IMG/VR virus record: IMGVR_UViG_3300037245_001762
Location: 1 to 52,067 of that record
Direction: 5' to 3' (one strand)
Origin: a virus
Taxonomy: Duplodnaviria; Caudoviricetes
Length of the DNA: 52,067 nucleotides
The position numbers and the translations under genes are program-made. The notes beneath the pieces were generated by a model. The model was not told the DNA's origin, searched no databases, and saw nothing but the letters and a program-made list of their open reading frames with translations. Shown here piece after piece: positions 2,613-52,067 of this stretch (position 1 is its first letter; every line of letters starts with the position of its first letter).

Positions 2613-2637
2613 AAACTATTTATATGTGTGGTGGTAC

Positions 2638-2952
2638 TTAAATATTATATGCACCACGATTATAGGTTGTCTCATATCTACCACATATCCCTATGCATTC
2701 TCTTGATGTCTTTACCTGTAGCTTCTTTGATAATATCTGCAAGAACAGCAGTAACAAAAATTCACGAAAAGCTTGATATTTTTTGAATTCAGATATAATT
2801 CCATCTACTATCTCTTGATTCTCTAATATTTGTTTTCGTATCTCTTCCATGTCTTGTTCGGAATCTGCTTTTTCACTATTAATTTCAAAACACCAAACTT
2901 TATCGTGCCAAATACCCATATCGTCTTTTGTTAGTTTGATTTGTTCAGTCAT
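2638..2952 (-). CDS. Hypothetical protein, probable frameshift near 2756-2760
   Basis: ORF track; the -1 frame gives ...ADIIKEATGKDI, matching the C-terminus of 5417..5968. Confidence 0.5.
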   Translation of the reverse strand: MTEQIKLTKDDMGIWHDKVWCFEINSEKADSEQDMEEIRKQILENQEIVDGIISEFKKYQAFREFLLLLFLQILSKKLQVKTSRECIGICGRYETTYNRGAYNI

Positions 2953-3277
2953 TTCTTTCCTTTAAAAGTTTAACGAAATCTTTATGGAATTTATTTTTAG
3001 AGTCATTCAACACTGCATATGCTATTTTCTGTTCATCATAGACAATCCTCTCAAAGTCTGGATGTTTACAATATACTATACTATCAAATATTCTATTACT
3101 ATTCTCCTCAATGTTCTTCTCATATGTCTTTATGTCATATCTAGAGAAGGCTAGAAAGTAACCATCACACCATAATAATGGTGAGGAACCTGCCATATAT
3201 ATTAAAAAATTCTCAAGATCATACTCTACCAAATTATTACAGGTTATTATTTTTGTGTCTTTTACTATAAATTCCAA
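2945..3277 (-). CDS. Hypothetical protein
   Basis: 110-aa ORF with TTTATATT box ~25 nt upstream. Confidence 0.55.
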   Translation of the reverse strand: MEFIVKDTKIITCNNLVEYDLENFLIYMAGSSPLLWCDGYFLAFSRYDIKTYEKNIEENSNRIFDSIVYCKHPDFERIVYDEQKIAYAVLNDSKNKFHKDFVKLLKERND

Positions 3278-3309
3278 TGATTTTCTAAAAAAAGAATTAT
3301 AATATAAAC

Positions 3310-3480
3310 CTATTCTTTAGGTGCTTTGTGACCACAAGCTCTGCATCTTATTTCATCCTCTTGTATAGGTCTAGCATCTACCGATAATGTATCAAAGGTT
3401 ATTACATCTACTTGATCAGAACTACATGATGCACATAGTGGTTTTGTTTCTTTTTTCTTTTTTGCTGGTTTTCTAGCCAA
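3310..3480 (-). CDS. Small Zn-ribbon protein (TFS/TFIIS C-terminal-like spacing)
   Basis: Manual translation: MARKPAKKKKETKPLCASCSSDQVDVITFDTLSVDARPIQEDEIRCRACGHKAPKE; two CxxC pairs. Confidence 0.6.
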   Translation of the reverse strand: MARKPAKKKKETKPLCASCSSDQVDVITFDTLSVDARPIQEDEIRCRACGHKAPKE

Positions 3481-3518
3481 TATTGTTTTAGTAACATTGT
3501 TATATTTATAGTTTTAAA

Positions 3519-3596
3519 GTACGGAATACAAGTGCAACACTTGTATCTCATTACTGGTGTGTAATGTATTTTCTCATTTTTAAACTAATTCCGTAC
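3519..3596 (-). ncRNA. Candidate structured small RNA (three-way junction)
   Basis: 9-bp closing inverted repeat GTACGGAAT/ATTCCGTAC enclosing hairpins ACAAGTG-CAA-CACTTGT and CATTAC-N6-GTAATG. Confidence 0.4.
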
Positions 3597-3800
3597 CATA
3601 CACACATATATCAGTTATATTAATGTTTGACTTATACTCTATGTTGCTCATCAATATGTCTTCGTTTATCTTTTTTATTCAGGCAAATCTTATTGCATAT
3701 TTGACACTTTGTTTTCCATCTATACACGTTAAAATAACTCATTATTGTTTTCCACCACACGTGTTCATAAACGTATAATTACTTCATAATATAAACCTAA

Positions 3801-4445
3801 TTATGGATATGGTAATACCTTCCATTTTAACTTGCCTATATAGTGTTTTCTTTTACGTGCTGAACAGTTAAAATAAATATATCTGTGTTTTCTGCTTGAT
3901 CTAGTACATTTTAACCTATCACCATACATGTTTCTTAATTCTTCCATAGAATGGTGATCTGTGAGATGTCTTGCGTGTTTTGAAACACCATCTATACTCC
4001 ACTCCTTTGTTTCTGCAGACAATCCTGTGTATAAGAAGTTAGTCGCTTGATATATAGTACCTGTGTGGCTTTCAGCCTGATCCGCGTAACTTACTATTAT
4101 AGAGTAGGGTAGTTTTTTAATAGTATTACCTATAAAAAACGATTCAACGTTTGAGGGTGTATTATCCTCTATATATAATCTATTAAGTTCTATTACATCC
4201 TTAAAGTGTTCCTCTCCACATATTGTCTTGCACAGTGGTGGACTAGGTGGTATACCATATGTTATTACACCAATCATTCTATCCTGTGAAAACCCAAATG
4301 ATGTGTTGTCTTTTTGTTCTCTGTCAAAAAGTCCAAAGGAGTATGTAATTGATGGTATCCTATGTAGATAGTGGTTATTAATCAGTTTGTCATATGCTTG
4401 TTTATTCTTTATTATGACAATATAGAACCTATCTGATAATTTCAT
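3801..4445 (-). CDS. Mom-like GNAT-fold DNA modification protein
   Basis: Motifs NNHYLHR, VIELNRL, IVSYADQAESHTGTIYQATNF and KHRYIY of the phage Mom-like family. Confidence 0.75.
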   Translation of the reverse strand: MKLSDRFYIVIIKNKQAYDKLINNHYLHRIPSITYSFGLFDREQKDNTSFGFSQDRMIGVITYGIPPSPPLCKTICGEEHFKDVIELNRLYIEDNTPSNVESFFIGNTIKKLPYSIIVSYADQAESHTGTIYQATNFLYTGLSAETKEWSIDGVSKHARHLTDHHSMEELRNMYGDRLKCTRSSRKHRYIYFNCSARKRKHYIGKLKWKVLPYP

Positions 4446-4735
4446 GAGTATATATCTGTTTTTGTTGTATTGGTTGGTTTTTTGCCACGTTTTAGTTTTT
4501 CTATATACTCTGGATGTTTATCCATGAATTTATTAAACATATAGAACCCCACACCTTCTTGGTACCTCTTTACAAGATCAATTTGTGATAATAAAAGTGC
4601 TTGATCAAGACTAGTATATTTTAACACACCTGTCAAGTGTAAAGCCTCAAACATATCAGGTGGAAGACTCTCAATATAATCGACAGATTCTAGATACTCG
4701 TCACCAATATATCTAGTCATTGTGGGTCTCCGCAA
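4442..4735 (-). CDS. Hypothetical protein
   Basis: ORF coupled to both neighbours; probable start at the internal Met (MTRYIGDE). Confidence 0.5.
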   Translation of the reverse strand: MRRPTMTRYIGDEYLESVDYIESLPPDMFEALHLTGVLKYTSLDQALLLSQIDLVKRYQEGVGFYMFNKFMDKHPEYIEKLKRGKKPTNTTKTDIYS

Positions 4736-9861: not shown

Positions 9862-10962
9862 TCATATTTTTGCCTCTAAATGTTGTATAATTTCAAGGTT
9901 GTTATATTCTTCCTCACTCATATTATGCTTCCAAGCCATAGCATCACTAGCCGTCTTCAGGACTGGATTTACAAATGAAACACGTTTTTTCTTAGGATTA
10001 TCAATGTCTGGATATGTGAGAAATCTTAACTCTTCACCATCAAACTGTGTGGAGTATAATTCATTTCCAAATTTACCTTTATCAACAAGTGTTTTATCTA
10101 GTGTGTCTAGGATATTTTCAAAACCATAATGTTGTATTGCAACAAATCTCTGATCTACATTTTTTATAGTTAACAATTCTTTGGCACTTAGTTTTCTATT
10201 TACAACTTTACTCCATAATTCTTCTTCAAACACTACTCCACTAATTGCATAAAAACCATAACCTGATTTGAACTCTACGGCTTTCGACGTTATAGAGTGA
10301 AGTCTATTATTTTCATCTCTTTTTGTTTTAGGGCATTTTGATATTATACAAATATTTTCAAATACTATTAAATCCCATACTCCTTTTTTTAAAAATTCAA
10401 TTTGCTGGTTTGTTTTTTGTTTTAGTTTATCATCTACTTTTATCAATCCTGTTTTTAGATAAAAATCAATGTAAGCATAATACCAACTTCTCCACGATAG
10501 CCCACCTAATTGAGAAAAATGTGTTAACTGTTGGCTGTAAATCTGGCTGTCAATCTGGCTGCGAATCTGGCTGTCAATCTGGCTGCGAATCTGGCTGTAA
10601 ATCTGGCTGTCAATCTGGATGCGAATCTGGCTGTAAATCTGGCTGCGAATCTGGATGCCAATCTGGCTGTCAATCTGGCTGCCAATCTGGCTGCCAATCT
10701 GGCTGCCAATCTGGCTGCGAATCTGGCTGCCAATCTGGCTACCTTTTTTGTTTGATAAAATATTAGCAAGATATTGACATTGTAAAGGATCATCAAGAAT
10801 GACAATAGTTGGTTTTTTTCTATTATCTAATGTGTATAGTTGCTCCACACCTTTTTCTACATCTTTGATGGTGATGTCTCTTTGAGTTTGACATATTTGA
10901 AGCCACCCATCTCTCGTTTTTGTGATTTCAAGTTTTTGGGATTCTGTTAGGTATGTAATCAT
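9862..10962 (-). CDS. DUF6745-like protein with internal tetrapeptide repeat
   Basis: N-terminal MITYLTESQ; RDENNRLHS...AVEFKSGYGFYAISGV; NVDQR; AMAW. Confidence 0.7.
   Translation of the reverse strand: MITYLTESQKLEITKTRDGWLQICQTQRDITIKDVEKGVEQLYTLDNRKKPTIVILDDPLQCQYLANILSNKKGSQIGSQIRSQIGSQIGSQIGSQIDSQIGIQIRSQIYSQIRIQIDSQIYSQIRSQIDSQIRSQIDSQIYSQQLTHFSQLGGLSWRSWYYAYIDFYLKTGLIKVDDKLKQKTNQQIEFLKKGVWDLIVFENICIISKCPKTKRDENNRLHSITSKAVEFKSGYGFYAISGVVFEEELWSKVVNRKLSAKELLTIKNVDQRFVAIQHYGFENILDTLDKTLVDKGKFGNELYSTQFDGEELRFLTYPDIDNPKKKRVSFVNPVLKTASDAMAWKHNMSEEEYNNLEIIQHLEAKI
10533..10740. repeat. Tandem repeat, 17 x 12 nt (coding strand AGC CAG ATT NNC)
   Basis: Directly visible GG(C/A)TGNNAATCT units encoding SQI[G/R/D/Y]. 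Confidence 0.95.
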
Positions 10963-16501: not shown

Positions 16502-17434
16502 TTAAATATCTGTAAAATAGTCTATTTCACTATCTTTGTTCATTTTTATCTCACCCTCATGGAATTCTTGGTTGCCGGAGGTTGAGAAACTGCAGCAAAA
16601 TTCTTGCTCAAATAGATAACCATACTCTTTTTTTAGACTCTCAATGTCTTCCTTAAATAGCATTTTTCCCAAAGAGACTTGGTATGGTTGAAGTAATGGG
16701 TAAAAGTCTATTGTTGGTGGTTCTTCATTAGCCTTATCAAATATCTCAAAGAAAAAGTTACTCCTACCGTTAGGGGTAGATTCTAATATGAAATCCGCGT
16801 CTATAATATTAGCAAGATTTGGTCTTACAGCCTTATAAACCACACTATCATCATGCCTGTTCACAAAAGCAGCCTCAGACATAAACACACAAATTACATT
16901 TTCCTCACCTCTAACAGATTCATTTGCTGGGTAGGCTGTAATTGTTATACCGTTGAATAAATCAACTACATTTTTAGCGTCATTTAATACTATATCACCC
17001 TCTTCCCAGAAATTTCCGTTAATGTCTGTAAAACCATTCATAAAAAGTGCCTTAAATCGTTTTATAAATTCGTTGGCTATACTCTGTGTGTTTCCAGCTA
17101 CGATCATAACCTTATGTTCTACGTATCTACCCTTAACAACCCTCCCTTTTATAATGTGATCAAAGCAGTTATACGCTATTGTTCTTAAAGCTGTCTCTGT
17201 TGCACCTATCTTTCTAGACTTGTTTAATATGACCTTGTGTTTTTTTTGTACGGCGTTAAAATACTCTAACTGATAATCAAATATATCAGTTCGCACACCG
17301 TTGTTTGGGTGTTTTGGGTTTCCAATCATTCTGTTAAATTCTATAAAATCATACGGCATAACTATAGAGTGGTTTTTTTTAGATATGTTTTTTGTCCAGA
17401 TCTCCAGTTGTTTGGAACTATTCTTTACACCCAT
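16502..17434 (-). CDS. terL: Terminase large subunit, ATPase domain only
   Basis: DYQ adenine-binding motif, Walker A KSRKIGAT, Walker B VFMSEAAF, coupling motif STPNG; ends just after FEQEFCCSF with no nuclease domain. Confidence 0.85.
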   Translation of the reverse strand: MGVKNSSKQLEIWTKNISKKNHSIVMPYDFIEFNRMIGNPKHPNNGVRTDIFDYQLEYFNAVQKKHKVILNKSRKIGATETALRTIAYNCFDHIIKGRVVKGRYVEHKVMIVAGNTQSIANEFIKRFKALFMNGFTDINGNFWEEGDIVLNDAKNVVDLFNGITITAYPANESVRGEENVICVFMSEAAFVNRHDDSVVYKAVRPNLANIIDADFILESTPNGRSNFFFEIFDKANEEPPTIDFYPLLQPYQVSLGKMLFKEDIESLKKEYGYLFEQEFCCSFSTSGNQEFHEGEIKMNKDSEIDYFTDI

Positions 17435-17472
17435 ATATAAGTGTTATTGCTGTAATATTATTTAAGTATTTA
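17432..17472 (-). promoter_or_regulatory. Shared packaging-gene promoter, copy 1
   Basis: + strand CATATATAAGTGTTATTGCTGTAATA identical at 17432, 49736 and 51253, including the start codon; TTAAATA TATA box adjacent. Confidence 0.85.
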
Positions 17473-17736
17473 TTAATCCTCCTCCTCTTCATCATAAGAT
17501 AATTCTAATAGTAACTGTGTTTTCCACTTTAGCCTCTCATCCTCTGTCTCATTCTTTATCATTAATTCATCATTAGGTATTTCAGGTATTGGTATACCTA
17601 TCTTGGAAAAGTCCTCTATTAATCGTTCATATTTTATCTGGTACATTGAATCACTCATTGTTTTTTGACTGTTCTCTATATGCCACATAATTCTTGACAG
17701 ATCTTTAGAGTCAAATTCCAGCCTAGCCATTAACAT
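17473..17736 (-). CDS. Hypothetical protein (positional candidate for small terminase)
   Basis: Immediately upstream of the TerL ATPase gene; no diagnostic motif. Confidence 0.35.
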   Translation of the reverse strand: MLMARLEFDSKDLSRIMWHIENSQKTMSDSMYQIKYERLIEDFSKIGIPIPEIPNDELMIKNETEDERLKWKTQLLLELSYDEEEED

Positions 17737-17769: not shown

Positions 17770-18045
17770 TTAAACTGTTCTTGTAGTTAATTTAGTGTGG
17801 TTATGTTTTTTATTGTTTTCATACCGTTCTTTAGCATAGGCTAACTTATACTCCCTGTTATTTTCATACCATTCTTTATGTCTGGCTAAGTCATACTCCT
17901 TATTATTTTCACGCCATTCTTTATTTTTGGCTAACCTATATTCCCTGTTATTTTCATGCCATTCCTTTTTATAAGATGCATGATATTCACTGTTATTTTC
18001 ACGCCATTCTTTATTTTTGGCTTTTTTATGTTCGTCACTTACCAT
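17770..18045 (-). CDS. Charged helical repeat protein (15-aa KEWxENNxEY repeats)
   Basis: ~45-nt tandem repeats; resembles HNH N-terminal repeats but has no nuclease domain. Confidence 0.55.
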   Translation of the reverse strand: MVSDEHKKAKNKEWRENNSEYHASYKKEWHENNREYRLAKNKEWRENNKEYDLARHKEWYENNREYKLAYAKERYENNKKHNHTKLTTRTV

Positions 18046-21929: not shown

Positions 21930-24350
21930 TTATAGTCGATAGGTGTCATCTGAATTCTTGGAAATTCTTCCACTATTGACACATTTTTGAAATACCATTT
22001 TGGCTTGATCTCTGTTAAAGTATAACCCATTTGCTATCTCAACCATAAAGTCTTCTTCTGTAAATGTCTCTTCATCTATACCTAATCTCTGTAAACAATC
22101 AGAGATAAAGTCCTCCTTGTTCATTTGCTTTTGTGTCTTAAATGTCTCCATCACATTTCCATCACTTGGGTCAATTCCAAAACTTTTTAATGACTCCTCA
22201 AATATATCACAAATGGCTTTTGCATCATTCTTGTCTGCTTTATCTCTCATGTGTATTCTTGCATGTGCCATTGTTAGTTTGGCTAAATCTTCTATCTTTC
22301 TAGGGTCTATAGGTATCTTATTTTGTTTTTTTGAAAAGCCTCTTATTCTCACATAGTATTCTGCTATGTGTTTTTTAGCCTCATCTGTAAGTTCTGGGAC
22401 ATATGTCATCTTTACATAATTTATAAATTTCTTAATCTTCTCAGCATCAACAGTTATCTCCGTGTTTACACTCATTTCTTTTAATATGTGTTTGGCAATG
22501 TCTGCATCTCTATACTCATCTACCTCATCACGTATAAGCCATATTATTGCAAACCTTGACAGTAACGGTTCAGTTAAATTAATTTGATCAAGTATTGGGA
22601 GATCTTTCCATCTACCTGACTTTGGGTTAGCCGCTGCTAGTATTGTCGTGTTTGTAGGTAATGTGCCATGCATGCCTACTTTATTAATAGGCACGAACCC
22701 CTCGGCCATTGCTGTCAATAATGCTTCTCTATCATGTGGATTCATCTTATCGATTTCATCTATTATAGCAGTTCCCTCATTCGCTATTGTTAGAGCACCT
22801 GGTAGGAAAACAAGTGGTGAGTTTGATGTGACTCTGTCCATACCTCCTGTAAGACCAGCTGCTGTATTACCTTTACCTGTTGTGAATATACATTTTTGTG
22901 TTATGTTCATTGTTTCTTTCATGATTGTGGATTTAGAAGTTCCTGGATCACCTAACAGAAACACTGCTATGTTGTTAATCTTTTTACTTGTTTCTGGTGC
23001 ACTCACTGATGATAGTAACACGGTTTTTTTAGCTTCGGTGTTCCCTAGTGTGGTATATGCCGACTTTGTTAGTTCTGTAAGAAAATCTTTCTCTTTGACA
23101 AGTTCTTTCCATTTCTCTATCTCGTCCTCTGTAGGTAAAAGTGTTTCCTCTTCATCTAAAGATATAATGCAAACTATATCTATAAACGGCTCGTTGTATT
23201 TTGTCTTTGCTTTTTTCTCCTGTCTGAACTGTCCCACTATAATCTTTTTTTGTCCTACAAATGCCTCACCTACAAAATCACCATATAATTTGGCTTTGAA
23301 AACATTGGGTTTACCGTGTCTTGATTCTGTTATGAACTCTGACAACCATAATATTTGTACATATTCAGATTCTAGAATTCTATACTCTCGCATTTTAGTG
23401 TCACACGTGTTACATAATACACTATCTAGTCTTCTATGTTCGTCACATGTTACTGTTTTTGAAGCTTGGCATTTGTCACACATAAAATCTGCCTTGGTTG
23501 TCACTGTCATTCTATCCTCCACAGCTATAACGTCACAATGAAAACTTATTATTTTGTCATAAAGGTTAGGCTCTATATCCTTGATATTGATGTTTGTGTC
23601 AGATATAAATTCTAACTTAGGTTCCAAGCCATATAATTTTAGAATGTCCATAATATATTTGGTAAAACTTCTTGTGTATGCCTGTATCATTACATGTATA
23701 TATTCATCATTCAGATCAAAGTAGAACGTGTTACTTAGTTGGTTATAGTTGTAATTGCACCTTACATATATAATCAGATAGTCATGCCATTCTTGAAATG
23801 ATCTAGGTAGTTTTTTTGGTTTTTCTGATTTCACAACACCACTCTCTTTTAATGCTAATTCAAACATCTTACTAAGTAATGGTATATCCATCGGGTGTTC
23901 ATATACTTTCTCACGTCTAAACAAATCTACCCATACCTGGTTTGTGTTTTTTCCTTCCTTTAGTAGTTTAACAGCATATATAAATGCGGAATCCTTTCTA
24001 ACTGAATCGTTACCATATTCAAAATCATCCACATTAAATCCTTGTGTCTTTAAATGATTTAATATACCTGACAATCTCACCTCTGTTATATTTTCATTAT
24101 TAGATACGTTAGACCATTCATGATCGTCCAGTGTCTCACCATCACCATGTATTATGATTTTTGTGCCGTCCTTTTTCTCCAACGTTCTGGATCTTGTCTC
24201 ATCAAACTCATATGGTTTTAGACACACATAAAACACACCGACCGAGTCTGTTAAGATTTTAGTTTTTGCTTTGACAGCCTCAACATCATCAAATATCACA
24301 CTAAGTTTTTCAACTTCAAAAACAACCACATCCTTACCACACTGTATCAT
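21930..24350 (-). CDS. mcm: MCM replicative helicase with N-terminal extension
   Basis: Zn finger CDKC..CNTC, Walker A GDPGTSKS, TAAGLTG, IDEIDKM, AAANP, LLSRF, PR..E sensor. Confidence 0.95.
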   Translation of the reverse strand: MIQCGKDVVVFEVEKLSVIFDDVEAVKAKTKILTDSVGVFYVCLKPYEFDETRSRTLEKKDGTKIIIHGDGETLDDHEWSNVSNNENITEVRLSGILNHLKTQGFNVDDFEYGNDSVRKDSAFIYAVKLLKEGKNTNQVWVDLFRREKVYEHPMDIPLLSKMFELALKESGVVKSEKPKKLPRSFQEWHDYLIIYVRCNYNYNQLSNTFYFDLNDEYIHVMIQAYTRSFTKYIMDILKLYGLEPKLEFISDTNINIKDIEPNLYDKIISFHCDVIAVEDRMTVTTKADFMCDKCQASKTVTCDEHRRLDSVLCNTCDTKMREYRILESEYVQILWLSEFITESRHGKPNVFKAKLYGDFVGEAFVGQKKIIVGQFRQEKKAKTKYNEPFIDIVCIISLDEEETLLPTEDEIEKWKELVKEKDFLTELTKSAYTTLGNTEAKKTVLLSSVSAPETSKKINNIAVFLLGDPGTSKSTIMKETMNITQKCIFTTGKGNTAAGLTGGMDRVTSNSPLVFLPGALTIANEGTAIIDEIDKMNPHDREALLTAMAEGFVPINKVGMHGTLPTNTTILAAANPKSGRWKDLPILDQINLTEPLLSRFAIIWLIRDEVDEYRDADIAKHILKEMSVNTEITVDAEKIKKFINYVKMTYVPELTDEAKKHIAEYYVRIRGFSKKQNKIPIDPRKIEDLAKLTMAHARIHMRDKADKNDAKAICDIFEESLKSFGIDPSDGNVMETFKTQKQMNKEDFISDCLQRLGIDEETFTEEDFMVEIANGLYFNRDQAKMVFQKCVNSGRISKNSDDTYRL

Positions 24351-25180: not shown

Positions 25181-25390
25181 TTATTCAAAACACTTTTCTA
25201 GGATTTCCAATACTTTACTTTTGGTGTATACCGTGTCTTCCATACCTGCAGACTTTATATCTTTTAACACATCTATTAAATTATCACTAATCTTGAGTGG
25301 CTCTACAAATGCCATCTTATAGTCATTTGGTATATTTGACATTCTTAATACACCTTTCAGATATTCTACACTGTAATGTGTTTTACCCAA
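25181..25390 (-). CDS. Hypothetical protein
   Basis: ORF track; overlaps the radA stop. Confidence 0.4.
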   Translation of the reverse strand: MGKTHYSVEYLKGVLRMSNIPNDYKMAFVEPLKISDNLIDVLKDIKSAGMEDTVYTKSKVLEILEKCFE

Positions 25391-26660
25391 TAGTTATCTC
25401 CTCATCATCTGATAGTAAACTCTTATCTATAAGCCCTTCCTCACTAGGTAAATCTAGTTCAACTGTTGGACCCTCATTGGCCTTATAGTCTTTTGGTGAC
25501 ACTTCTTTTTTAAAGGCTTTAACCTCCTTCTCAAGTATATTATAGTTTATGTTATATGATATAATTTTACTGTCACTGTTGATCTTTTCTACCAGTTTTA
25601 TCTCTGACATATCTAAGTTGTTTGAGACTAGGGTTTTTGCAATTATATTACAAAGTATTTTTTTTGCCTTCCTTAGTTCTTCTGGAATGTCCTCCACACC
25701 TCTATTTGACAGTTTGAATGGCATGGTTAACTTTGCAAAATGTGGTGAGTCTACCATCTTAGCTCTCCATTTAGTATCAGAATCATTCATTACATACATT
25801 CTATGTGTTGGTTCATGTCCTACAATGTTTCCACCTATTGGTTTTGTAGGGTCACCGAAAAATTGTCCTGGATCATGTTGTACTTGGTTGGTCATCATAA
25901 CCCAACACTTAAAGTATAATGGCATTGCACCCAATTTACTCATTAGTGGTTTAAGATAATTCTGTCTGTCTGATAGTTCACCTCTGCCTAGAAATTCCTT
26001 TCTTATTTGTCCTATAGCACCATCAATCACTACAAGTTTAACCTCACCTTTAATCATTTCTTCGGTTATATTATTAATAATGTTAAACGTCTCTGTGGAG
26101 TTTGTGGCTGTTCTTATTATTAATCTGTCCAAGAAATTTATCATGTCATCTTCCTCATCACTGAGATATCCTCTTGCACGTGCTATTTCTAATAGTCTTT
26201 CCACGTCAAAGGTATCCTCACAGTCTATTACAAATGCTTTATCACCATTATTAAGAACCTCCACTATACATGACATTAAATACTGAGTTTTACCAGAACC
26301 AAATGCACCATATACTTCGGTAAGGCTTTCCTGTTTGGGTCCCTTACCACCAAATAATATATCTATTGCTTCACTACCTGAGGAGAGTGTAGGTAAATCC
26401 CTCTTATACTTGTAGATCTCCAGTGCTGACATTACACGTGGGCGTATTACGTTTGCCTTTTCTAGAGCATCTCTTGAGTCGTTCCATAGTCGTGTTGCCT
26501 TATCCATGTCTAGACCTGTAATTCTTTTAATTTCTTCAGCACTAGACATACAGATATCATGTAAATACCGTAAACCAGATTCTTCCATCCTTTTCATTTT
26601 GGTTGGTCCTACACCATCAATACTGTCAAGTTTAAAATCAACCCGTTCCTTTTTTACCAC
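25383..26660 (-). CDS. radA: RadA recombinase with C-terminal extension
   Basis: HhH IDGVGP, Walker A GAFGSGKTQ, EFLGRGELSDRQ, TNQV, PIGGNIVGH, VDSP. Confidence 0.93.
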   Translation of the reverse strand: MVKKERVDFKLDSIDGVGPTKMKRMEESGLRYLHDICMSSAEEIKRITGLDMDKATRLWNDSRDALEKANVIRPRVMSALEIYKYKRDLPTLSSGSEAIDILFGGKGPKQESLTEVYGAFGSGKTQYLMSCIVEVLNNGDKAFVIDCEDTFDVERLLEIARARGYLSDEEDDMINFLDRLIIRTATNSTETFNIINNITEEMIKGEVKLVVIDGAIGQIRKEFLGRGELSDRQNYLKPLMSKLGAMPLYFKCWVMMTNQVQHDPGQFFGDPTKPIGGNIVGHEPTHRMYVMNDSDTKWRAKMVDSPHFAKLTMPFKLSNRGVEDIPEELRKAKKILCNIIAKTLVSNNLDMSEIKLVEKINSDSKIISYNINYNILEKEVKAFKKEVSPKDYKANEGPTVELDLPSEEGLIDKSLLSDDEEITIG

Positions 26661-28363: not shown

Positions 28364-29107
28364 TTATGTTTGGTTTTGTTGTTTATATAATTCTATGGTC
28401 TCTTTTAATTTTTCAATATGATCATCTATGTTAATTTTAAACACCTTACTTTGTCCATCGGCTGACGACATTATAATTATTCCTAATTTAATATTTGTTT
28501 TTTGTAACTCATTCCACATTAATGCATATGCGGTTAACTGTAATGTGTAACTTGAAATATCGTCTTTCATTTTAGAACTCGTTTTAAAGTCAATCACCGC
28601 ATACTCACCTTTATAGTCAGCTATGCAGTCCACTCTTCCGGCTATTCCAAGTTTCTCACTGTATAGGTTTGCTTCTAAAACCCTTATTCTGTCAATTTTA
28701 TCTACCTCAGTTTGTATATTCCTAAAGTGTGACATGGGGTATAGTTCTGCAAATGGATCGAGTTTTTTATTATTAAGATAATCTTCTATGAGTTTGTGGG
28801 CTTTTGTGCCTATACTTGCTGATCTTCCAGATATTACACCAGATGTTTTTGTTCCAGAGTGTTTTACTATACTATTATATATACTATCATCTATGTTTAT
28901 TTCCTTTTTTACCTTTGTAGCAACTTCACCACCCAATCTGTCTTTCCAGTCCTTTAACCATCCTTGATCAAGTATGGATAAAACAGTTGTGACAGATGGA
29001 AACACCTGACCTTTATGGTTTTCCCAGTGACGTTTGCCTTTTATTCTACGTTCTTTAAGAAGTTTTAGGCGTTTCGTTGTTACTTTCAGGAATCTTTTTT
29101 GGCTCAT
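28364..29107 (-). CDS. PD-(D/E)xK exonuclease (Cas4-like/lambda exonuclease superfamily)
   Basis: FPSVTTVL, GTKAH, E..L, AGRVD, IDFKTS, LQLTAY. Confidence 0.85.
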   Translation of the reverse strand: MSQKRFLKVTTKRLKLLKERRIKGKRHWENHKGQVFPSVTTVLSILDQGWLKDWKDRLGGEVATKVKKEINIDDSIYNSIVKHSGTKTSGVISGRSASIGTKAHKLIEDYLNNKKLDPFAELYPMSHFRNIQTEVDKIDRIRVLEANLYSEKLGIAGRVDCIADYKGEYAVIDFKTSSKMKDDISSYTLQLTAYALMWNELQKTNIKLGIIIMSSADGQSKVFKINIDDHIEKLKETIELYKQQNQT

Positions 29108-46669: not shown

Positions 46670-47500
46670 CTACAAAATACTTTCAAACTTTACCCTTTTT
46701 CTGTATATGATAGGATTCACTGTGTAATAGAATTTACGTATGTATTCTTTTTTGTAGAAATAAGCCTTGAAAATCTCATATGAATACATATTCTGTCTAA
46801 TCTTTGGTCTAAAACCACATAACTCATTGACCAGATCTGCATACACATCACATAATTCCTTTGTTTTGTGTGTGAAACTTACACCGTTCACACTACCAGA
46901 ACTGTAAACACTACCTTCAGAATCCCATAAACCACGAAGAAATAACACTTTTTGGTCACGGTTAAGCTTATCTATAAACTCGAAAGTTTGAATCTTTGTG
47001 AGAAAGTCACGTAAATTAACAGATAACATACGTACTACATATGTGTTATTTCGTTGATAGATCTTACCATTCCTCCAATCCTTTAATGGTTTTTTCTTAT
47101 TATAATACTTGTTAAGACTTAATCCAAATTGTACCTTAAGACACCTGCCAAACTCCTCTGCAAATTCCTCATCCACGGTTTCCAGTCCCACACCACCTGC
47201 CTTGATAATATATCCGTCACCGTACAACACCCCTACAATATAGGCTAATTCATTAGTTATTCTATCATGACCGTCATTTAATTGTCTTGTGTGCCATCCG
47301 GTATATTTTCCCTGTAAACCTTTCCTAATACTATCTTTATGCTCTTGTGATAAGACTCTTCCCTGTGCAGATTCTTTATTGGTTCTAGTAATATCCAACC
47401 CATGTAAGATTTTATAGAACTGTGTTTTATTAATACCACATTCCTTTAATATTTGTTTTATTGGTGTCCTATTAAGATATAGTTCTACAAGTTTTTCCAT
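46670..47500 (-). CDS. Free-standing LAGLIDADG homing endonuclease with HTH/NUMOD3-like N-terminus
   Basis: YIVGVLYGDG and FLRGLWDSEG motifs; LSQEHKDSIRKG. Confidence 0.85.
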   Translation of the reverse strand: MEKLVELYLNRTPIKQILKECGINKTQFYKILHGLDITRTNKESAQGRVLSQEHKDSIRKGLQGKYTGWHTRQLNDGHDRITNELAYIVGVLYGDGYIIKAGGVGLETVDEEFAEEFGRCLKVQFGLSLNKYYNKKKPLKDWRNGKIYQRNNTYVVRMLSVNLRDFLTKIQTFEFIDKLNRDQKVLFLRGLWDSEGSVYSSGSVNGVSFTHKTKELCDVYADLVNELCGFRPKIRQNMYSYEIFKAYFYKKEYIRKFYYTVNPIIYRKRVKFESIL

Positions 47501-48169: not shown

Positions 48170-49738
48170 TTAAACTGTTGCTGGTTCACCACCGACTGGC
48201 CATTTAGATTTCTGTACTCGTACAGGACTGGTTGTGGAATTCCAATTATTTGGATTCCATGATACTGTTAGTGATTGATCAAGTGGCCCTTTATCTACCC
48301 ATGTGTTTTTTTGTGGACTAGCATCTCCACCTAGTGTTGTCGTGTCCTTTGTTGTAAACTCTTCAAATCCTACAAATTCTGGCAGTCTTGACTTCTCCAT
48401 TAATCCGTTTTCAACCATATCCTTACCTATTTCATAAAGATCAGGTCTAAACATTGATGTTATCTTTGGTTTGTTATAGGTGTGTATAATTTTTATTGGT
48501 AAATCATCAGCATCATCCAATCTAAACAATACACGAAGTATTTTATCATAATATTGTGATTGTAACATTTTCTCTAATTTTAGTTTTTCTGGTAAAATCT
48601 CACTGTTAATAAACATGTCAATCTCTTCGGAGTTTGAATTTCCACCAAGTGCACCTTTATCACCTTCTGACAACATGAATGCTGGTATGTTATAGTATGC
48701 TAGTATGGCCTTTATACATCGTATTACTATTCTTTCTAGGCCTGCAATGTCACCAGAGTTTGTACTTGAACTTAATAGTTCTACACCACCTTCACCATCT
48801 GGGTCTTGAACTACTGCGATATCTTGTCCTTTTGATTGTGAGTTAGCAGTTAGAAAGGTGTCTAATACATTTTGTTCATTTCCAAAATCCTGTGGTTGTA
48901 TAGGTACACCAAACACCTTTGGTTGGTGCCATGTGGATTCTGCGGCATGTAAAAAGTCATCAGTAAATATAAGGTTAAGTACATTAGCAACGTTTGTCAC
49001 TCTGTCAACCTGGGAGTCACCATAGTGGTCTGCAAATAACTCCTGATTGAAGCCATTCTCTATATATATCATTCTTTCTGTAGGTAATATAAATTGTTGT
49101 GCACTAGTAAGTCCAACTATTTGTACACCGACCAGTTCTGACGTATTCTGATCAAGATAAGGTCTGAGTGTAAATTCTGGTCTTATTAGTCGTATGGATG
49201 TAGGCATATCAAACACACCATCATCATTTTCGTCTATAGGTGTCATGGCTAGTACACATCTGCCCTGTTCTCTCGCTGTTATGTATCCGTTAAATATATT
49301 TTCAGATAAATCCATATCGTTACTAATTTTGTCAATGTAATTCTTAATCTGTAATGGTGACATTTCCTTGTTAAAATATGGTACAAATAATGGTTGTTCA
49401 GATTTCCATATTTTTATACGCTCGTCATCTATGTCCTCATCAGATCTTGGCACAACATCTGTAATATAACCTTGACCACACACTAATTTTGTGATTATCC
49501 AATTTGCCTTATAGACATATGAATTTTGCATGGCAGCTCTGAATTCATCACGTTGTCCTTGTATGTAGGGATCAACTGGAGCCCATACCTGTAAACCATT
49601 AAAACTTAGCTCAGTTAGGCCCTTCTTTCTCCATAAGCTACTTTTCGATATTGTACGCTTAGATGTGGCACTTCTAAGTCTAGATGTAGGTTTTTCTGAT
49701 TTTGCCTTTCTAACTCTAGATTTCTTTTTAGAGACCAT
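48170..49738 (-). CDS. Portal protein
   Basis: 522 aa; G...L, HYGDS, ILAYYNIPAFML, F....ILP pattern. Confidence 0.8.
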   Translation of the reverse strand: MVSKKKSRVRKAKSEKPTSRLRSATSKRTISKSSLWRKKGLTELSFNGLQVWAPVDPYIQGQRDEFRAAMQNSYVYKANWIITKLVCGQGYITDVVPRSDEDIDDERIKIWKSEQPLFVPYFNKEMSPLQIKNYIDKISNDMDLSENIFNGYITAREQGRCVLAMTPIDENDDGVFDMPTSIRLIRPEFTLRPYLDQNTSELVGVQIVGLTSAQQFILPTERMIYIENGFNQELFADHYGDSQVDRVTNVANVLNLIFTDDFLHAAESTWHQPKVFGVPIQPQDFGNEQNVLDTFLTANSQSKGQDIAVVQDPDGEGGVELLSSSTNSGDIAGLERIVIRCIKAILAYYNIPAFMLSEGDKGALGGNSNSEEIDMFINSEILPEKLKLEKMLQSQYYDKILRVLFRLDDADDLPIKIIHTYNKPKITSMFRPDLYEIGKDMVENGLMEKSRLPEFVGFEEFTTKDTTTLGGDASPQKNTWVDKGPLDQSLTVSWNPNNWNSTTSPVRVQKSKWPVGGEPATV

Positions 49739-49777
49739 ATATAAGTGTTATTGCTGTAATACTATTTAAAGTATTTA
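49736..49777 (-). promoter_or_regulatory. Shared packaging-gene promoter, copy 2 (portal)
   Basis: CATATATAAGTGTTATTGCTGTAATACTATTTAAAGTATTTA. Confidence 0.85.
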
Positions 49778-49862
49778 TTATGCGGAGATCTAATATGTTA
49801 TTTAAACTAAAGTAACTTACTTTAAAGTAACAAATATATACTACGTTAACGTAAGATATGAT

Positions 49863-50048
49863 ATGAAACAACTAACACAAACAGATAGAAAAACAGTTGA
49901 TATGATTCAATTTTTAGAAAAAAAATATCAAATACAACTACTAGAGGGATATGGTATTCATACACAAGACATGAAAGAATATCAAAAAGTCAGACTTGAA
50001 TACCTACAAGTGATAGCACAAATACAAGATGAAGGTGTAAAAATATGA
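49863..50048 (+). CDS. Hypothetical protein
   Basis: ORF track; ends with a GGTG Shine-Dalgarno for the next small ORF. Confidence 0.45.
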   Translation: MKQLTQTDRKTVDMIQFLEKKYQIQLLEGYGIHTQDMKEYQKVRLEYLQVIAQIQDEGVKI

Positions 50049-50197
50049 TTAGACCCACTGACGAATGTTTTGTGTTATGTTCTGATAGTAATTGCTTTGC
50101 AGAACACCAGATTGTATTAAGAGCAGAAAAAGTCAATGTTTGTGTATTTGTAAGAAATTTGGGGTTAGTGAATTGGGATTAAAGGAGTTGAAATCTA

Positions 50198-50377
50198 ATG
50201 ATACCTAACTGGATAAAATTTGTGCCTGCTATTAATTTGTACGTAACAAAACTACAACCTTGTAAATGTGAGAGATGTGATTATATATGGTTTCCAAGAA
50301 TAAATTCTATTGGTGATATGAACATAAACACCTGTCCAAAATGCAAATCAAAGTTATGGAATATTCCAAAGTGTTAA
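50198..50377 (+). CDS. Archaeal-type Zn-ribbon protein
   Basis: Manual: CERCDYIWFPR...TCPKCKSKLWN. Confidence 0.65.
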   Translation: MIPNWIKFVPAINLYVTKLQPCKCERCDYIWFPRINSIGDMNINTCPKCKSKLWNIPKC

Positions 50378-50407
50378 TAAGTGTTGTGTGATGAATCTAT
50401 CTAACTT

Positions 50408-51007
50408 TTAAAAACCCTCAAATACGTTCCATGAATCATCAAAGTCAGGGTCTAAACCTTTTCTCATTCTGGTGTCTCTTGCAATACGTGACATTTTATA
50501 GGTGGGTACTCCATGGAAATGGTTTCTGGCAGCATAGCAAGCATATCCTAGAGCCCAAAATATATCATCATGACTTCTTGCTGGATGTCTATATAGGAGA
50601 TTTCCAGCATCCGATTTATAGGATTCCTGTTCTAGAATCTGTTTGAATAGATCTTTGTCACCTATCTCTAATTTGTCATTATGTGCTAGTGTGTGGATGA
50701 GGTTTATAATTTCCTGCTTTTTAGACATTGTTGAGACAACCTCCTCCATTGGAACTTCTTTTGGTAGAAATTCTGCTGCGGCGTCACCTACACCACTCCT
50801 GTCATAACATAGTTTGGTCATTCTGTATTTTTTATTTATTTTGTAAATACCCATCGCTTGTTCTTTATAATCTATATGATCCCATACCTTTTGTCCACAT
50901 TGTCGAAGAGTTCCGTCAAGATATTCCAATAAAACGAAAGCAGCTTGGTCAATTCATTACCGTTTGGCGGGATCGTAACCACCAAAGAAAACTGGAATCC
51001 CTACCAA
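50408..51007 (-). pseudogene. terL: Terminase large subunit nuclease domain interrupted by in-frame TAA TGA (pseudogene or recoded)
   Basis: TTG at 51007 after AGGTGGT: MVGIPVFFGGYDPAKR**IDQAAFVLLEY..., then YDRSGVG and HDDIFWAL. Confidence 0.75.
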
Positions 51008-51255
51008 AAAATACCACCTTTCCTACCATAATGTAATTCCTTATGACATGGTATACATAAAGAGACACCGTTATTCAGATTTAAAGATAATTTAGGATTA
51101 TTTTTTGTTATTTGCCATTCATGTTTACTATTACACCCACAACATATCCACCCATCTTTTATTTTTCTCCAGAGTGCTCTACCATTAGGTCTAATGTATG
51201 TGATATTAGAACCACAATCAACACAAATTCTATCCTTAGGAATTAAAACATTCAT
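51001..51255 (-). CDS. Zn-finger/HNH hybrid protein
   Basis: CVDCGS..TY...W...CCGC joined to the HNH C-terminal half NNGVSLCIPCHKELH. Confidence 0.65.
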   Translation of the reverse strand: MNVLIPKDRICVDCGSNITYIRPNGRALWRKIKDGWICCGCNSKHEWQITKNNPKLSLNLNNGVSLCIPCHKELHYGRKGGIFW

Positions 51256-51294
51256 ATATAAGTGTTATTGCTGTAATACTATTTAAGGTATTTA
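51253..51294 (-). promoter_or_regulatory. Shared packaging-gene promoter, copy 3 (HNH plus TerL nuclease)
   Basis: CATATATAAGTGTTATTGCTGTAATACTATTTAAGGTATTTA. Confidence 0.85.
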
Positions 51295-51315
51295 AATCGT
51301 GTAATTGTCTTTAGA

Positions 51316-51678
51316 TCAATTACTGTTTATAGGGTTGTTTGTGTATAAAAGATCTTTATATTGTTCATCAATTCTAGTATTGTCATTATATTGCACACCA
51401 CGTAGTTTGGTACCCTCTAGGTTAGCACCTGTCAGATCTACATTTGATAGGTTAGTGTATGCTAGATCTGCACCATACAAGTTGGCATTATGTAGATTAA
51501 CACCGTGTAGATTTGCACCAGATAAGTTAGCATTAGACAGATCACTACCATGCATATCTGTATTAGACAGATCAATATTGGATAGGTCTATACCAGTTAA
51601 ATCAGCATCATATAGTTTGGTATGACGTAGGTCCGTATTAGACAGACCTGATAAATCAGAACTCACATATGTTTTCAT
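51316..51678 (-). CDS. Pentapeptide repeat protein
   Basis: A(D/N)Lxx repeats. Confidence 0.85.
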   Translation of the reverse strand: MKTYVSSDLSGLSNTDLRHTKLYDADLTGIDLSNIDLSNTDMHGSDLSNANLSGANLHGVNLHNANLYGADLAYTNLSNVDLTGANLEGTKLRGVQYNDNTRIDEQYKDLLYTNNPINSN

Positions 51679-51875
51679 GTTGTGTTTATGTTATACATCC
51701 TATTTAAGTATTAATTATCTGGGACAGTTACAGCATGACCACTCTTTACAAGCATAATAAACATCTCCGAGATCATCTTCATCCCAACATGGTGCTTTCC
51801 AAGTAGAGCAAACAATCTCACATATATTACACTGTTGTTTTTCCCTAAATCTTTTTGAAATTCTGCCTGGTAACT

Positions 51876-52067
51876 TCAAGATGTCTCTACCCTTGGAGCT
51901 AAATAAAAATGTATTCTACCTATATTAGATACTTTAAACTCTACTTTAAGAGGTTTATGATCAGAGAATTCACACGTGATTAAACCGGATGTGTTTCCCA
52001 CTGCCTTTACTATGGGATTAAGGTATTCTAAACTGTAAGTACCTTCACTACCATCACCGGGGATTAT
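51876..52067 (-). CDS. pcn: PCNA sliding clamp, C-terminal part (gene starts beyond the window)
   Basis: Manual: ...GTYSLEYLNPIVKAVGNTSGLITCEFSDHKPLKVEFKVSNIGRIHFYLAPRVETS*. Confidence 0.9.
   Translation of the reverse strand: MIPGDGSEGTYSLEYLNPIVKAVGNTSGLITCEFSDHKPLKVEFKVSNIGRIHFYLAPRVETS

Follow-up and report, generated by a model that had tools for sequence, protein, structure and literature searches.

A coding gap beside an HNH-like endonuclease gene in the terminase nuclease gene of an archaeal-type virus: a candidate ribosomal hop

Introduction

Programmed bypassing is among the rarest modes of gene reading, being represented by gene 60 of phage T4 and its relatives, by yeast mitochondria, where the byp elements of Magnusiomyces are 27 to 55 nt long, and by a candidate in the terminase gene of one Streptomyces phage. 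Here we describe a further candidate in IMG/VR virus record IMGVR_UViG_3300037245_001762 (52,067 nt; the whole stretch is called the window below), where a TAA-TGA doublet interrupts the gene for the nuclease domain of the terminase large subunit (TerL) and an HNH-like endonuclease gene lies directly upstream.

The closest described systems are of three kinds. The MobA element combines an HNH gene, a homologous region that is encoded by the element and contains the nick site, and a bypassed gap through which it escapes nicking by MobA (10.1101/2022.08.31.505936). The terminase gene of Streptomyces phage Hau3 contains two 10-nt inserts, and a junction peptide was obtained by mass spectrometry in E. 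coli (PMC10732093). Synthetic stop-hops in E. coli have been reviewed together with the imperfectly matched codons of Magnusiomyces, and the "motor" of gene 60 bypassing is there identified as the completion of a 5' stem-loop (PMC5009743). According to the same review (Atkins, PMC5009743), no natural in-frame stop-hop was known in 2016, and short natural counterparts had long been expected. By our comparison, the locus described here resembles both the mobA/gene 60 cassette and the Hau3 inserts; it is set apart from both in that its gap is much shorter than that of gene 60 and its bypass is proposed.

Results

An in-frame stop doublet divides the terminase nuclease gene

An earlier note on this DNA had reported that a minus-strand TTG (51007) opens MVGIPVFFGGYDPAKR, which runs into TAA-TGA at 50959-50954 and then into IDQAAF, and we confirmed that observation (coordinates at the nuclease locus all refer to the minus strand). 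AGGTGGT stands at 51019-51013 and the TTG start at 51007-51005, from which the 5' frame reads (M)VGIPVFFGGYDPAKR and ends with CGG at 50962-50960. TAA (50959-50957) and TGA (50956-50954) follow, ATT GAC resumes the frame (IDQAAF...) from 50953, and the 181 sense codons after the gap end in a stop at 50410-50408.

A six-frame Pfam search matched Terminase_6C positions 1-152 of 155 over 50537-50983 at 40.6 bits (cut-off, 22.6), with "1 TGA, 1 TAA" inside the match. The 3' piece by itself scored 32 bits, and because the score rises when the match is carried across the stops, the strand before them belongs to the Terminase_6C domain. The nuclease also matched phrog_5909 (E 1.3e-12), and the family profile found the terminase nuclease structures 5m1q/5m1f in the PDB (E about 5e-20); 5m1q, from a Thermus phage, aligned with identical spacing (GADFGKNQD). 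The AlphaFold model (mean pLDDT, 76) places the gap in a loop (residues 18-26) between strand 1 (11-17) and strand 2 (27-35).

The Logan assembly of the probable source run covered 50300-51282 with 0 differences at a depth of about 8. An assembler quirk is thereby ruled out, while the biological support is not independent because this assembly comes from the same sample.

The doublet is an insertion relative to the family

A HMMER search over 1.84 billion representatives gave 184 relatives at E <= 0.001, of which 21 were aligned with the read-through translation (22 sequences). All 21 lack a residue at both stop positions, and the loop length is invariant. D17, D25 and D74 are invariant in this alignment and H151-D152-D153 nearly so; we take the conserved acidic residues to be the metal ligands known from the family. 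Of these, D17 is encoded ahead of the gap, by the 5' piece. The claim that removing the 6 nt restores the D-x5-D spacing was therefore borne out. At the DNA level, 39 of 41 related loci in IMG/VR run G-x-D-x-[AG]-x-R straight into [VIL]D, and a wider script count over viral and metagenome loci gave 57 uninterrupted loci of the form G-x-D-x-A-x-R-[VIL]-D. The TAA-TGA doublet is an insertion.

An exact-pattern search of IMG/VR found no close DNA relative either with or without the 6 nt, and a search with a degenerate FGGYDPAKR pattern matched only L018, which is ungapped. No close relative of the window without the endonuclease gene was found in these searches.

A diverged relative carries a gap at the same site

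Among protein relatives the nearest is P0157 (67% identity), which starts MDQAAF, exactly past the break. Its DNA lies in L085, a contig of another project, and the 181-aa open reading frame (ORF) is also recorded from a 38.5-kb contig. L085 contains, in order, a homologous HNH-like ORF (...LCIPCHKELHYGRKSDL), a TTG, AVQIFFGGYDPAKR with CGG, a 4-nt TTGA, GTG GAT CAG (VDQAAF...) and a portal-position gene. Its gap falls at the same codon boundary as that of the window, between R and [IV]D, and MAFFT pairs CGGTAATGA with CGGT--TGA. The earlier note had held that the 6 nt would be an artefact or a private mutation if close relatives lacked them; this nearest relative keeps an interruption, and the 57 loci without an insert are more distant.

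When the window is compared with L085, the 3' piece shows a proportion of synonymous differences (pS) of 0.79 and of nonsynonymous differences (pN) of 0.23, so that synonymous sites are saturated, and the ten codons for FFGGYDPAKR show 6 differences at 7 synonymous sites and 0 at 23 nonsynonymous sites. By this measure of selection, these results show that both nuclease pieces have been kept under purifying selection since the two lineages split.

The Arg codon ahead of the gap is CGG in the window and in L085. This codon is used there by none of 38 distinct ungapped sequences and is rare in the window (11 of 515 Arg codons, 2.1%). TGA stands right before the resume codon in both. Because the two loci share T..TGA and the rare CGG, we regard them as holding one inherited gap and not two scars; most simply, a single gap would have been inherited, and both pieces would have remained translated and under selection from then on. 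P0157 had no match among GenBank phage records and none in GTDB genomes.

Two further features of L085 were noted. The 3' end of the HNH-like ORF (about 51015-51061 in the window and 5010-5056 in L085) is identical at 45 of 47 nt despite saturation elsewhere, which could reflect a nucleotide-level constraint (for example, an element that stimulates translation of the nuclease piece or binds the ribosome for it) or else a tract of recent conversion. Upstream of the cassette, at 1783-4572, a 929-aa ORF resembles an intein-bearing ribonucleotide reductase, as judged from its translation by eye.

Each interruption lies beside an HNH gene

The HNH-like ORF of the window gave a weak match to the phrog_119 HNH endonucleases (E 0.0041) and no Pfam match at E 0.01. 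P0155, which is 48% identical to it, matched Pfam HNH (PF01844) at 24.3 bits (cut-off, 21.4) and phrog_119 at 1.1e-8, and the two proteins share the C-terminal block ...LNLNNG.SLCIPCHKELH. Another HNH protein, P0154 (80% identical), is encoded on a contig of 80.8 kb. The direct match being weak, we regard the product of 51001-51255 as a probable divergent HNH-family protein that may travel with the gap. A search for its relatives gave distant HNH genes only in IMG/VR and one unrelated Flavobacteriales hit in GTDB.

A third gapped lineage consists of L040 and L041, which come from two samples and are identical in the nuclease region. Compared with L030 and L033, they have a 144-aa HNH gene (phrog_2255, E 2.2e-8) inserted inside the nuclease gene; the flanks of L040 and L030 are 92-100% identical per 50-nt bin, and L030 has neither the HNH gene nor the shift. 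Upstream of the insert, L040 retains a leftover resident nuclease start, MTILVKFGGLYVI, followed by a stop. Downstream of the HNH gene come a diverged, element-borne second copy (IVKFGGLDV), then CAAGA, then GTT GCT AAC AGG GTA GAC (VANRVD), so that the 5-nt CAAGA stands between two identical GTT codons and the net shift is 8 nt. In the orphaned MTILVKFGGLYVI (L040, about 700-745), Tyr takes the place of the catalytic Asp, one change at a key residue. Beyond L040 and L041, the search for this type of HNH gene found one 48% relative, in an unrelated high-GC phage and with no nuclease beside it.

All three interruptions fall <=12 nt apart, each beside an HNH gene. The HNH-like neighbours went unrecognised by Pfam at E 0.01, and PHROGs were used instead. 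When 46 distinct upstream-neighbour ORFs were scanned (including those of L040 and L085), the HNH PHROG families were each matched by single members only. None of the other 44 neighbours was identified as HNH, with one weak phrog_8446 match (E 0.013) that could not be assigned to a member. Since an HNH neighbour is present in 3 of 3 distinct gapped lineages and in at most 1 of 44 others, interruption and HNH neighbour go together. We infer mobility only from the presence and absence of the element in the pair L040 and L030, whose HNH gene is different from that of the window.

Introns, inteins, frameshift fusion and recoded stops

Several other accounts were rejected. All three stop codons end long ORFs of the record (TAA 36 times, TGA 14 and TAG 10), so the standard genetic code fits, and a search of the record for tRNA genes found none; an alternative code was rejected on these two grounds. 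A self-splicing or archaeal bulge-helix-bulge intron was rejected because 49500-52067 had no Rfam match at E values up to 1; L040 and L085 gave chance-level Rfam matches only. Gaps of 4 to 8 nt are in any case shorter than any self-splicing or bulge-helix-bulge intron. A split intein was rejected because an intein half would not fit at the end of the ATPase ORF and intein motifs are absent from the 5' piece. Fusion of the HNH-like protein to the nuclease by frameshifting was rejected because the window and L085 have different frame offsets.

Predicted RNA structure ahead of the gaps

The earlier note had proposed that the mRNA folds just 5' of the stops. A fold of UUUGGUGG with CCGCCAAA is predicted. 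The 33 nt 5' of CGG fold at -9.5 kcal/mol, lower than the matching segment of most ungapped relatives (2 of 39 homologous ungapped controls are as low), although the fold is not exceptional against shuffled sequences. The corresponding 5' segment of L040 was at -9.8 kcal/mol (1 of 39 controls as low; shuffle z, -3.10), and L085 had a shuffle z of -2.66. The 3' arm of the predicted hairpin adjoins the proposed take-off codon in all three lineages.

Genome context and a split terminase

The window is the whole of a linear IMG/VR record in which a search for terminal repeats or circular closure found none; its long genes all lie on the minus strand, and its G+C content is about 34%. The coordinates of the features discussed are collected in Table 1. 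CheckV estimates the completeness of the record at 100%. Because PCNA is cut off at the contig end and terminal repeats are absent, we conclude that the record is not complete despite this estimate.

Unlike the usual TerL, the nuclease is not fused with the ATPase domain in one polypeptide; the two are separate ORFs, 33 kb apart on the window contig. The ATPase gene scored 20.7 bits against Terminase_6N, slightly below the 22-bit cut-off. The best 20 relatives of the nuclease are 105-245 aa long, and most of them are stand-alone nucleases of about 180-245 aa; the stand-alone relatives begin 2-4 residues ahead of FGG. In relatives, 1.2-5.2 kb of variable genes separate the nuclease gene from an ATPase homologue (50-56% identical) upstream; in L088 and L098 the ATPase gene adjoins the nuclease gene and is still separate. 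The division of the large terminase into ATPase and nuclease genes extends across the whole virus clade (L008, L017, L020, L022, L026, L027, L036-L038, L088 and L098), and a literature search at abstract level found no report of a split TerL in archaeal viruses.

The 522-aa gene after the nuclease gene had no Pfam or PHROG match; its position and synteny suggest a portal. The 42-nt repeat occurs in exactly three copies, at 17432-17473 (ATPase gene), 49736-49777 (portal-position gene) and 51253-51294 (HNH-nuclease unit). The copies are 98%, 100% and 83% identical to the reference copy, the one before the HNH-nuclease unit being intact at 98%. Its position and motif suggest that the repeat is a promoter common to these units, with a TTAAATA box, which would give leaderless packaging-gene transcripts. 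Because the same repeat precedes all three, the ATPase, portal-position and HNH-nuclease units may be switched on together.

Four other features of the window were noted. A free-standing LAGLIDADG-type endonuclease ORF (46670-47500, minus strand, 276 aa; Pfam LAGLIDADG_3, E 2.3e-16) lies in the structural module and is a second selfish endonuclease of this genome. A PD-(D/E)XK or Cas4-like nuclease gene (28364-29107, minus strand; Pfam PDDEXK_1, E 3.2e-9) has homologues in L020, L022 and L027, which stand between the ATPase and nuclease genes in L020 and L022 and upstream of the ATPase gene in L027. About 20 tandem copies of a 12-nt unit at 10496-10783, within ORF 9862-10962 (DUF6745), encode a 4-residue protein repeat. 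Just upstream of the ATPase gene, four 45-nt tandem repeats occupy 17802-18022 inside a 91-aa ORF (17770-18045).

Table 1. Coordinates of the features of the window discussed in the text
Feature	Coordinates	Strand	Remarks
Nuclease 5' piece, TTG + 15 codons	50960-51007	minus	beta-strand 1, first catalytic Asp (GGYD); ends in CGG
6-nt coding gap, TAA TGA	50954-50959	minus	not in ungapped relatives; aligns with the 4-nt TTGA of L085
Nuclease 3' piece, 181 codons from ATT + stop	50408-50953	minus	remaining acidic residues D25, D74, H151-D152-D153
Hairpin UUUGGUGG-(8 nt)-CCGCCAAA	50963-50986	minus	predicted; 3' arm abuts CGG
HNH-like endonuclease ORF, 84 aa	51001-51255	minus	ends ...LCIPCHKELHYGRKGGIFW and a stop, which overlaps the nuclease TTG
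42-nt repeat	51253-51294	minus	ends in the ATG of the HNH-like ORF; promoter-like
522-aa portal-position gene	48170-49738	minus	named from position only; follows the nuclease gene in all relatives
Terminase large-subunit ATPase domain gene, 310 aa	16502-17434	minus	phrog_2 terminase large subunit, E 1.5e-17
MCM	21933-24350		archaeal-type replication gene
RadA/Rad51	25386-26660		archaeal-type replication gene
PCNA	51879-52067		truncated by contig end; only PCNA_C present

Discussion

Comparison with known cassettes

The upstream HNH-family gene, the stand-alone state of the nuclease gene and the match to the layout of a homing endonuclease with a coding gap had been missed in the earlier note. 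As in the mobA/gene 60 system, the interrupted ORF is immediately preceded by an HNH-family gene (window, L085 and L040/L041), the element sits within DNA for the metal-binding catalytic motif of an essential enzyme, and an untranslated gap would follow a short N-terminal piece. The proposed take-off codon of the window is followed by a stop codon, as is that of gene 60. The comparison of L040 with L030 supplies two more likenesses, an element that brings along a copy of the coding sequence it displaces and a pair of near-identical genomes with and without it. The differences are that the gap here is 4-8 nt instead of 50, that the piece before it has 15-16 codons instead of 46, so that a nascent-peptide signal is impossible, that the flanking codons are identical only in L040, and that the target is a terminase nuclease in an archaeal-type virus rather than a topoisomerase. 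The likeness drawn here is one of layout, and the bypass here is proposed.

The Hau3 inserts are likewise short noncoding blocks inside a terminase gene whose flanks exactly match uninterrupted relatives; a 5' stem-loop was proposed as stimulator, the A site holds a slow or unreadable codon, and extra residues at the conserved junction were argued to be unlikely (PMC10732093). Unlike the gap of the window, they begin with UUA, a rare codon, have been interpreted as a sensor of the life cycle and interrupt a full-length terminase of a bacterial phage; the paper mentions no endonuclease, and the term "HNH" occurs 0 times in its text (PMC10732093). The junction peptide of Hau3 was seen by mass spectrometry, whereas the window is known from sequence alone. 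As in synthetic stop-hops, CGG-TAA-TGA would spend 9 nt on a single amino acid, and a stop would separate the take-off codon from the landing codon; synthetic stop-hops were shown with matched codons, in engineered constructs and at low efficiency (PMC5009743). Like the locus described here, MobE in nrdA of phage Aeh1 is an endonuclease gene inside an essential gene whose function is kept without an intron or intein; there, two sizeable proteins with added tails reassemble, as described in the source (10.1101/2022.08.31.505936), whereas here the first piece would be a 16-aa strand. The mitochondrial byps of Magnusiomyces differ in not being tied to an endonuclease. Literature searches at abstract level found no natural stop-hop since 2016 and no report of an endonuclease-linked coding gap in a terminase nuclease gene.

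A cassette with a hopped gap

The conservation of both pieces suggests that the nuclease gene is probably functional despite the gap. Our favored explanation, which we hold tentatively, is that the gap is a short untranslated stretch of a homing-endonuclease cassette that has settled on a stand-alone terminase nuclease gene and is crossed by a short ribosomal hop. The cassette would comprise the HNH-family endonuclease gene, the first 16 nuclease codons, which encode the catalytic beta-strand, and the gap itself, which would break the target of the endonuclease in the catalytic-motif DNA and so probably make the carrier genome immune.

In the proposed hop, the ribosome would decode the rare Arg codon CGG and meet TAA in its A site. 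The peptidyl-tRNA-Arg would release, the mRNA would slip 6 nt forward, and the tRNA would re-pair on TGA, a near-cognate codon for a UCG anticodon, before decoding resumed at ATT. A tRNA-Arg with the anticodon UCG would pair equally with CGG and UGA, making two Watson-Crick pairs and one G·U pair with each. The 9 nt CGG-TAA-TGA would then give a single Arg and a normal AKR-ID junction, a stop-hop in which ...GGYDPAK/R is joined to IDQAAFVLLEYLDGTLR with no extra residues. The hairpin abutting CGG could help by zipping behind the ribosome and pulling the mRNA. The equivalent hops would run from CGG over T to TGA in L085, with decoding resumed at GTG (+4), and from GTT over CAAGA to GTT in L040/L041, with decoding resumed at GCT (+8). 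By our reckoning, a hop is the only scheme that would give the invariant junction of the family in all three gapped lineages. The hop itself we put forward with the same or slightly greater reserve as the cassette, and it is with slightly greater reserve that we suggest the fuller statement, a natural in-frame stop-hop in an archaeal virus, within a mobile HNH cassette that carries a 4-8-nt gap into a catalytic hairpin.

Several points weigh against a hop. Take-off and landing codons differ (CGG and TGA) in the window and L085 and are identical only in L040, and the argument from near-cognate pairing draws on general knowledge of tRNA-Arg(UCG). A stop occupies the A site at take-off only in the window; L085 has UUG there and L040 has CAA. 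Because the nascent chain is only 16 residues long at take-off, a nascent-peptide signal of the gene 60 type cannot operate. The window hairpin is unexceptional against shuffles (z, -0.77 for 81 nt and -1.54 for 51 nt), and the short 5' segment of L085 is unremarkable (-6.4 kcal/mol, 8 of 39 controls as low). The 5' piece of L040 has no ATG, GTG or TTG start. The gapped lineages number only three, two of which have common ancestry, and assemblies drop rare variants, so that a gap-free minority could be present in the sample. Programmed bypass has, to our knowledge, never been shown in archaea, and an abstract-level search of the literature found no archaeal case. The hop in the window virus is a prediction from its sequence.

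Damage left by the endonuclease

The first alternative is that the HNH enzyme cuts its own genome, sloppy repair leaves insertions, and the nuclease gene is dead, a null allele that persists because coinfecting intact viruses supply the function or because the HNH enzyme makes the packaging cuts. HNH proteins do assist terminases in DNA cutting in cos phages such as HK97. The three interruptions, <=12 nt apart beside HNH genes, are placed as if a cut site set their position; the L040 insertion is recent, so it is untried by time, and it lacks a canonical start; and the read depth is only about 8. However, under this explanation the T..TGA and the rare CGG common to the window and L085 would be a coincidence. 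Synonymous sites are saturated, yet the 5' strand has no amino acid change and the 3' piece retains every conserved acidic residue. Neither the insert of the window nor that of L085 tandemly duplicates its flank, unlike a fill-in scar. No other gene of the record looks decayed, and the packaging-type upstream repeat is intact at 98%. We consider damage unlikely.

An enzyme in two pieces

A second alternative, which was also the second option of the earlier note, is that the 16-aa peptide ends at TAA, a separate 181-aa protein starts after the gap, and the two assemble noncovalently, with the peptide supplying its strand in trans. We know of no natural precedent for a lone 16-mer strand supplied to a fold, which counts against this possibility. 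In its favor, the 5' piece is conserved as protein and possesses a TTG of its own, coupled to the stop of the HNH ORF, and a ribosome terminating at the window TAA would be 3 nt away from the next piece. The gap of L085 is followed by GTG, a normal start codon from which gene callers predict a 181-aa protein. MobA-split topoisomerase and MobE-split NrdA function as reassembled pieces (10.1101/2022.08.31.505936). On the other hand, the codon after the gap is ATT in the window and GTT in L040, neither of them a usual start, and the next ATG of L040 would remove VANRVDN, including the position of the invariant D25. The 5' peptide would end in an out-of-frame tail of 15 aa in L085 and of 6 aa in L040 but would have no such tail in the window, and the structural model puts strand 1 first in the sheet, hairpinned directly to strand 2. 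The conserved CGG and TGA would also be left unexplained. On balance, a two-piece enzyme seems quite unlikely to us, although it would itself be unusual for a catalytic strand to come in trans from a 16-residue peptide.

Other forms of recoding, and artefact

Recoding that leaves extra residues in the beta1-beta2 loop would take the form of double readthrough in the window, a +1 shift after TTG in L085 and a -1 or +2 shift in L040. The gap does fall in the loop between strands 1 and 2 (residues 18-26), and Terminase_6C tolerates varied loop lengths there in other terminases. This account is nevertheless improbable. Each lineage would need a mechanism of its own, and readthrough of two stops in a row is expected to have a very low efficiency. 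Neither the L085 site nor the L040 site shows a slippery motif, the record encodes no suppressor tRNA, and none of the 21 aligned relatives varies in the length of this loop. The earlier note had offered bypass and readthrough together; bypass would yield a normal protein in each of the three gapped lineages, and double-stop readthrough was rejected as a general account because the 4-nt and 8-nt versions shift the frame.

A sequencing or assembly artefact, or an inconsequential private recent mutation, as the single sample and the depth of about 8 might suggest, is very improbable, given the identical sequence from two assemblers, the homologous gap at the same site in a contig of another project and the recovery of that ORF on two contigs. 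The option of a recent inactivating insertion or artefact, raised in the earlier note, thus has against it the second assembly, the L085 gap and purifying selection on both pieces.

Implications

Gene callers give this essential gene as a truncated protein of 173 or 181 aa, which is a warning for annotation. Should the hop prove real, it would be without precedent both as a programmed bypass in archaea and as a natural in-frame stop-hop, and the locus would be a second, independent pairing of an endonuclease with a bypass element. The gap also offers a test of hopping by archaeal ribosomes. A minimal gap of 6, 4 or 8 nt, simple to synthesise and tied to an endonuclease gene, could show how a selfish element invades active-site DNA without killing its host virus.

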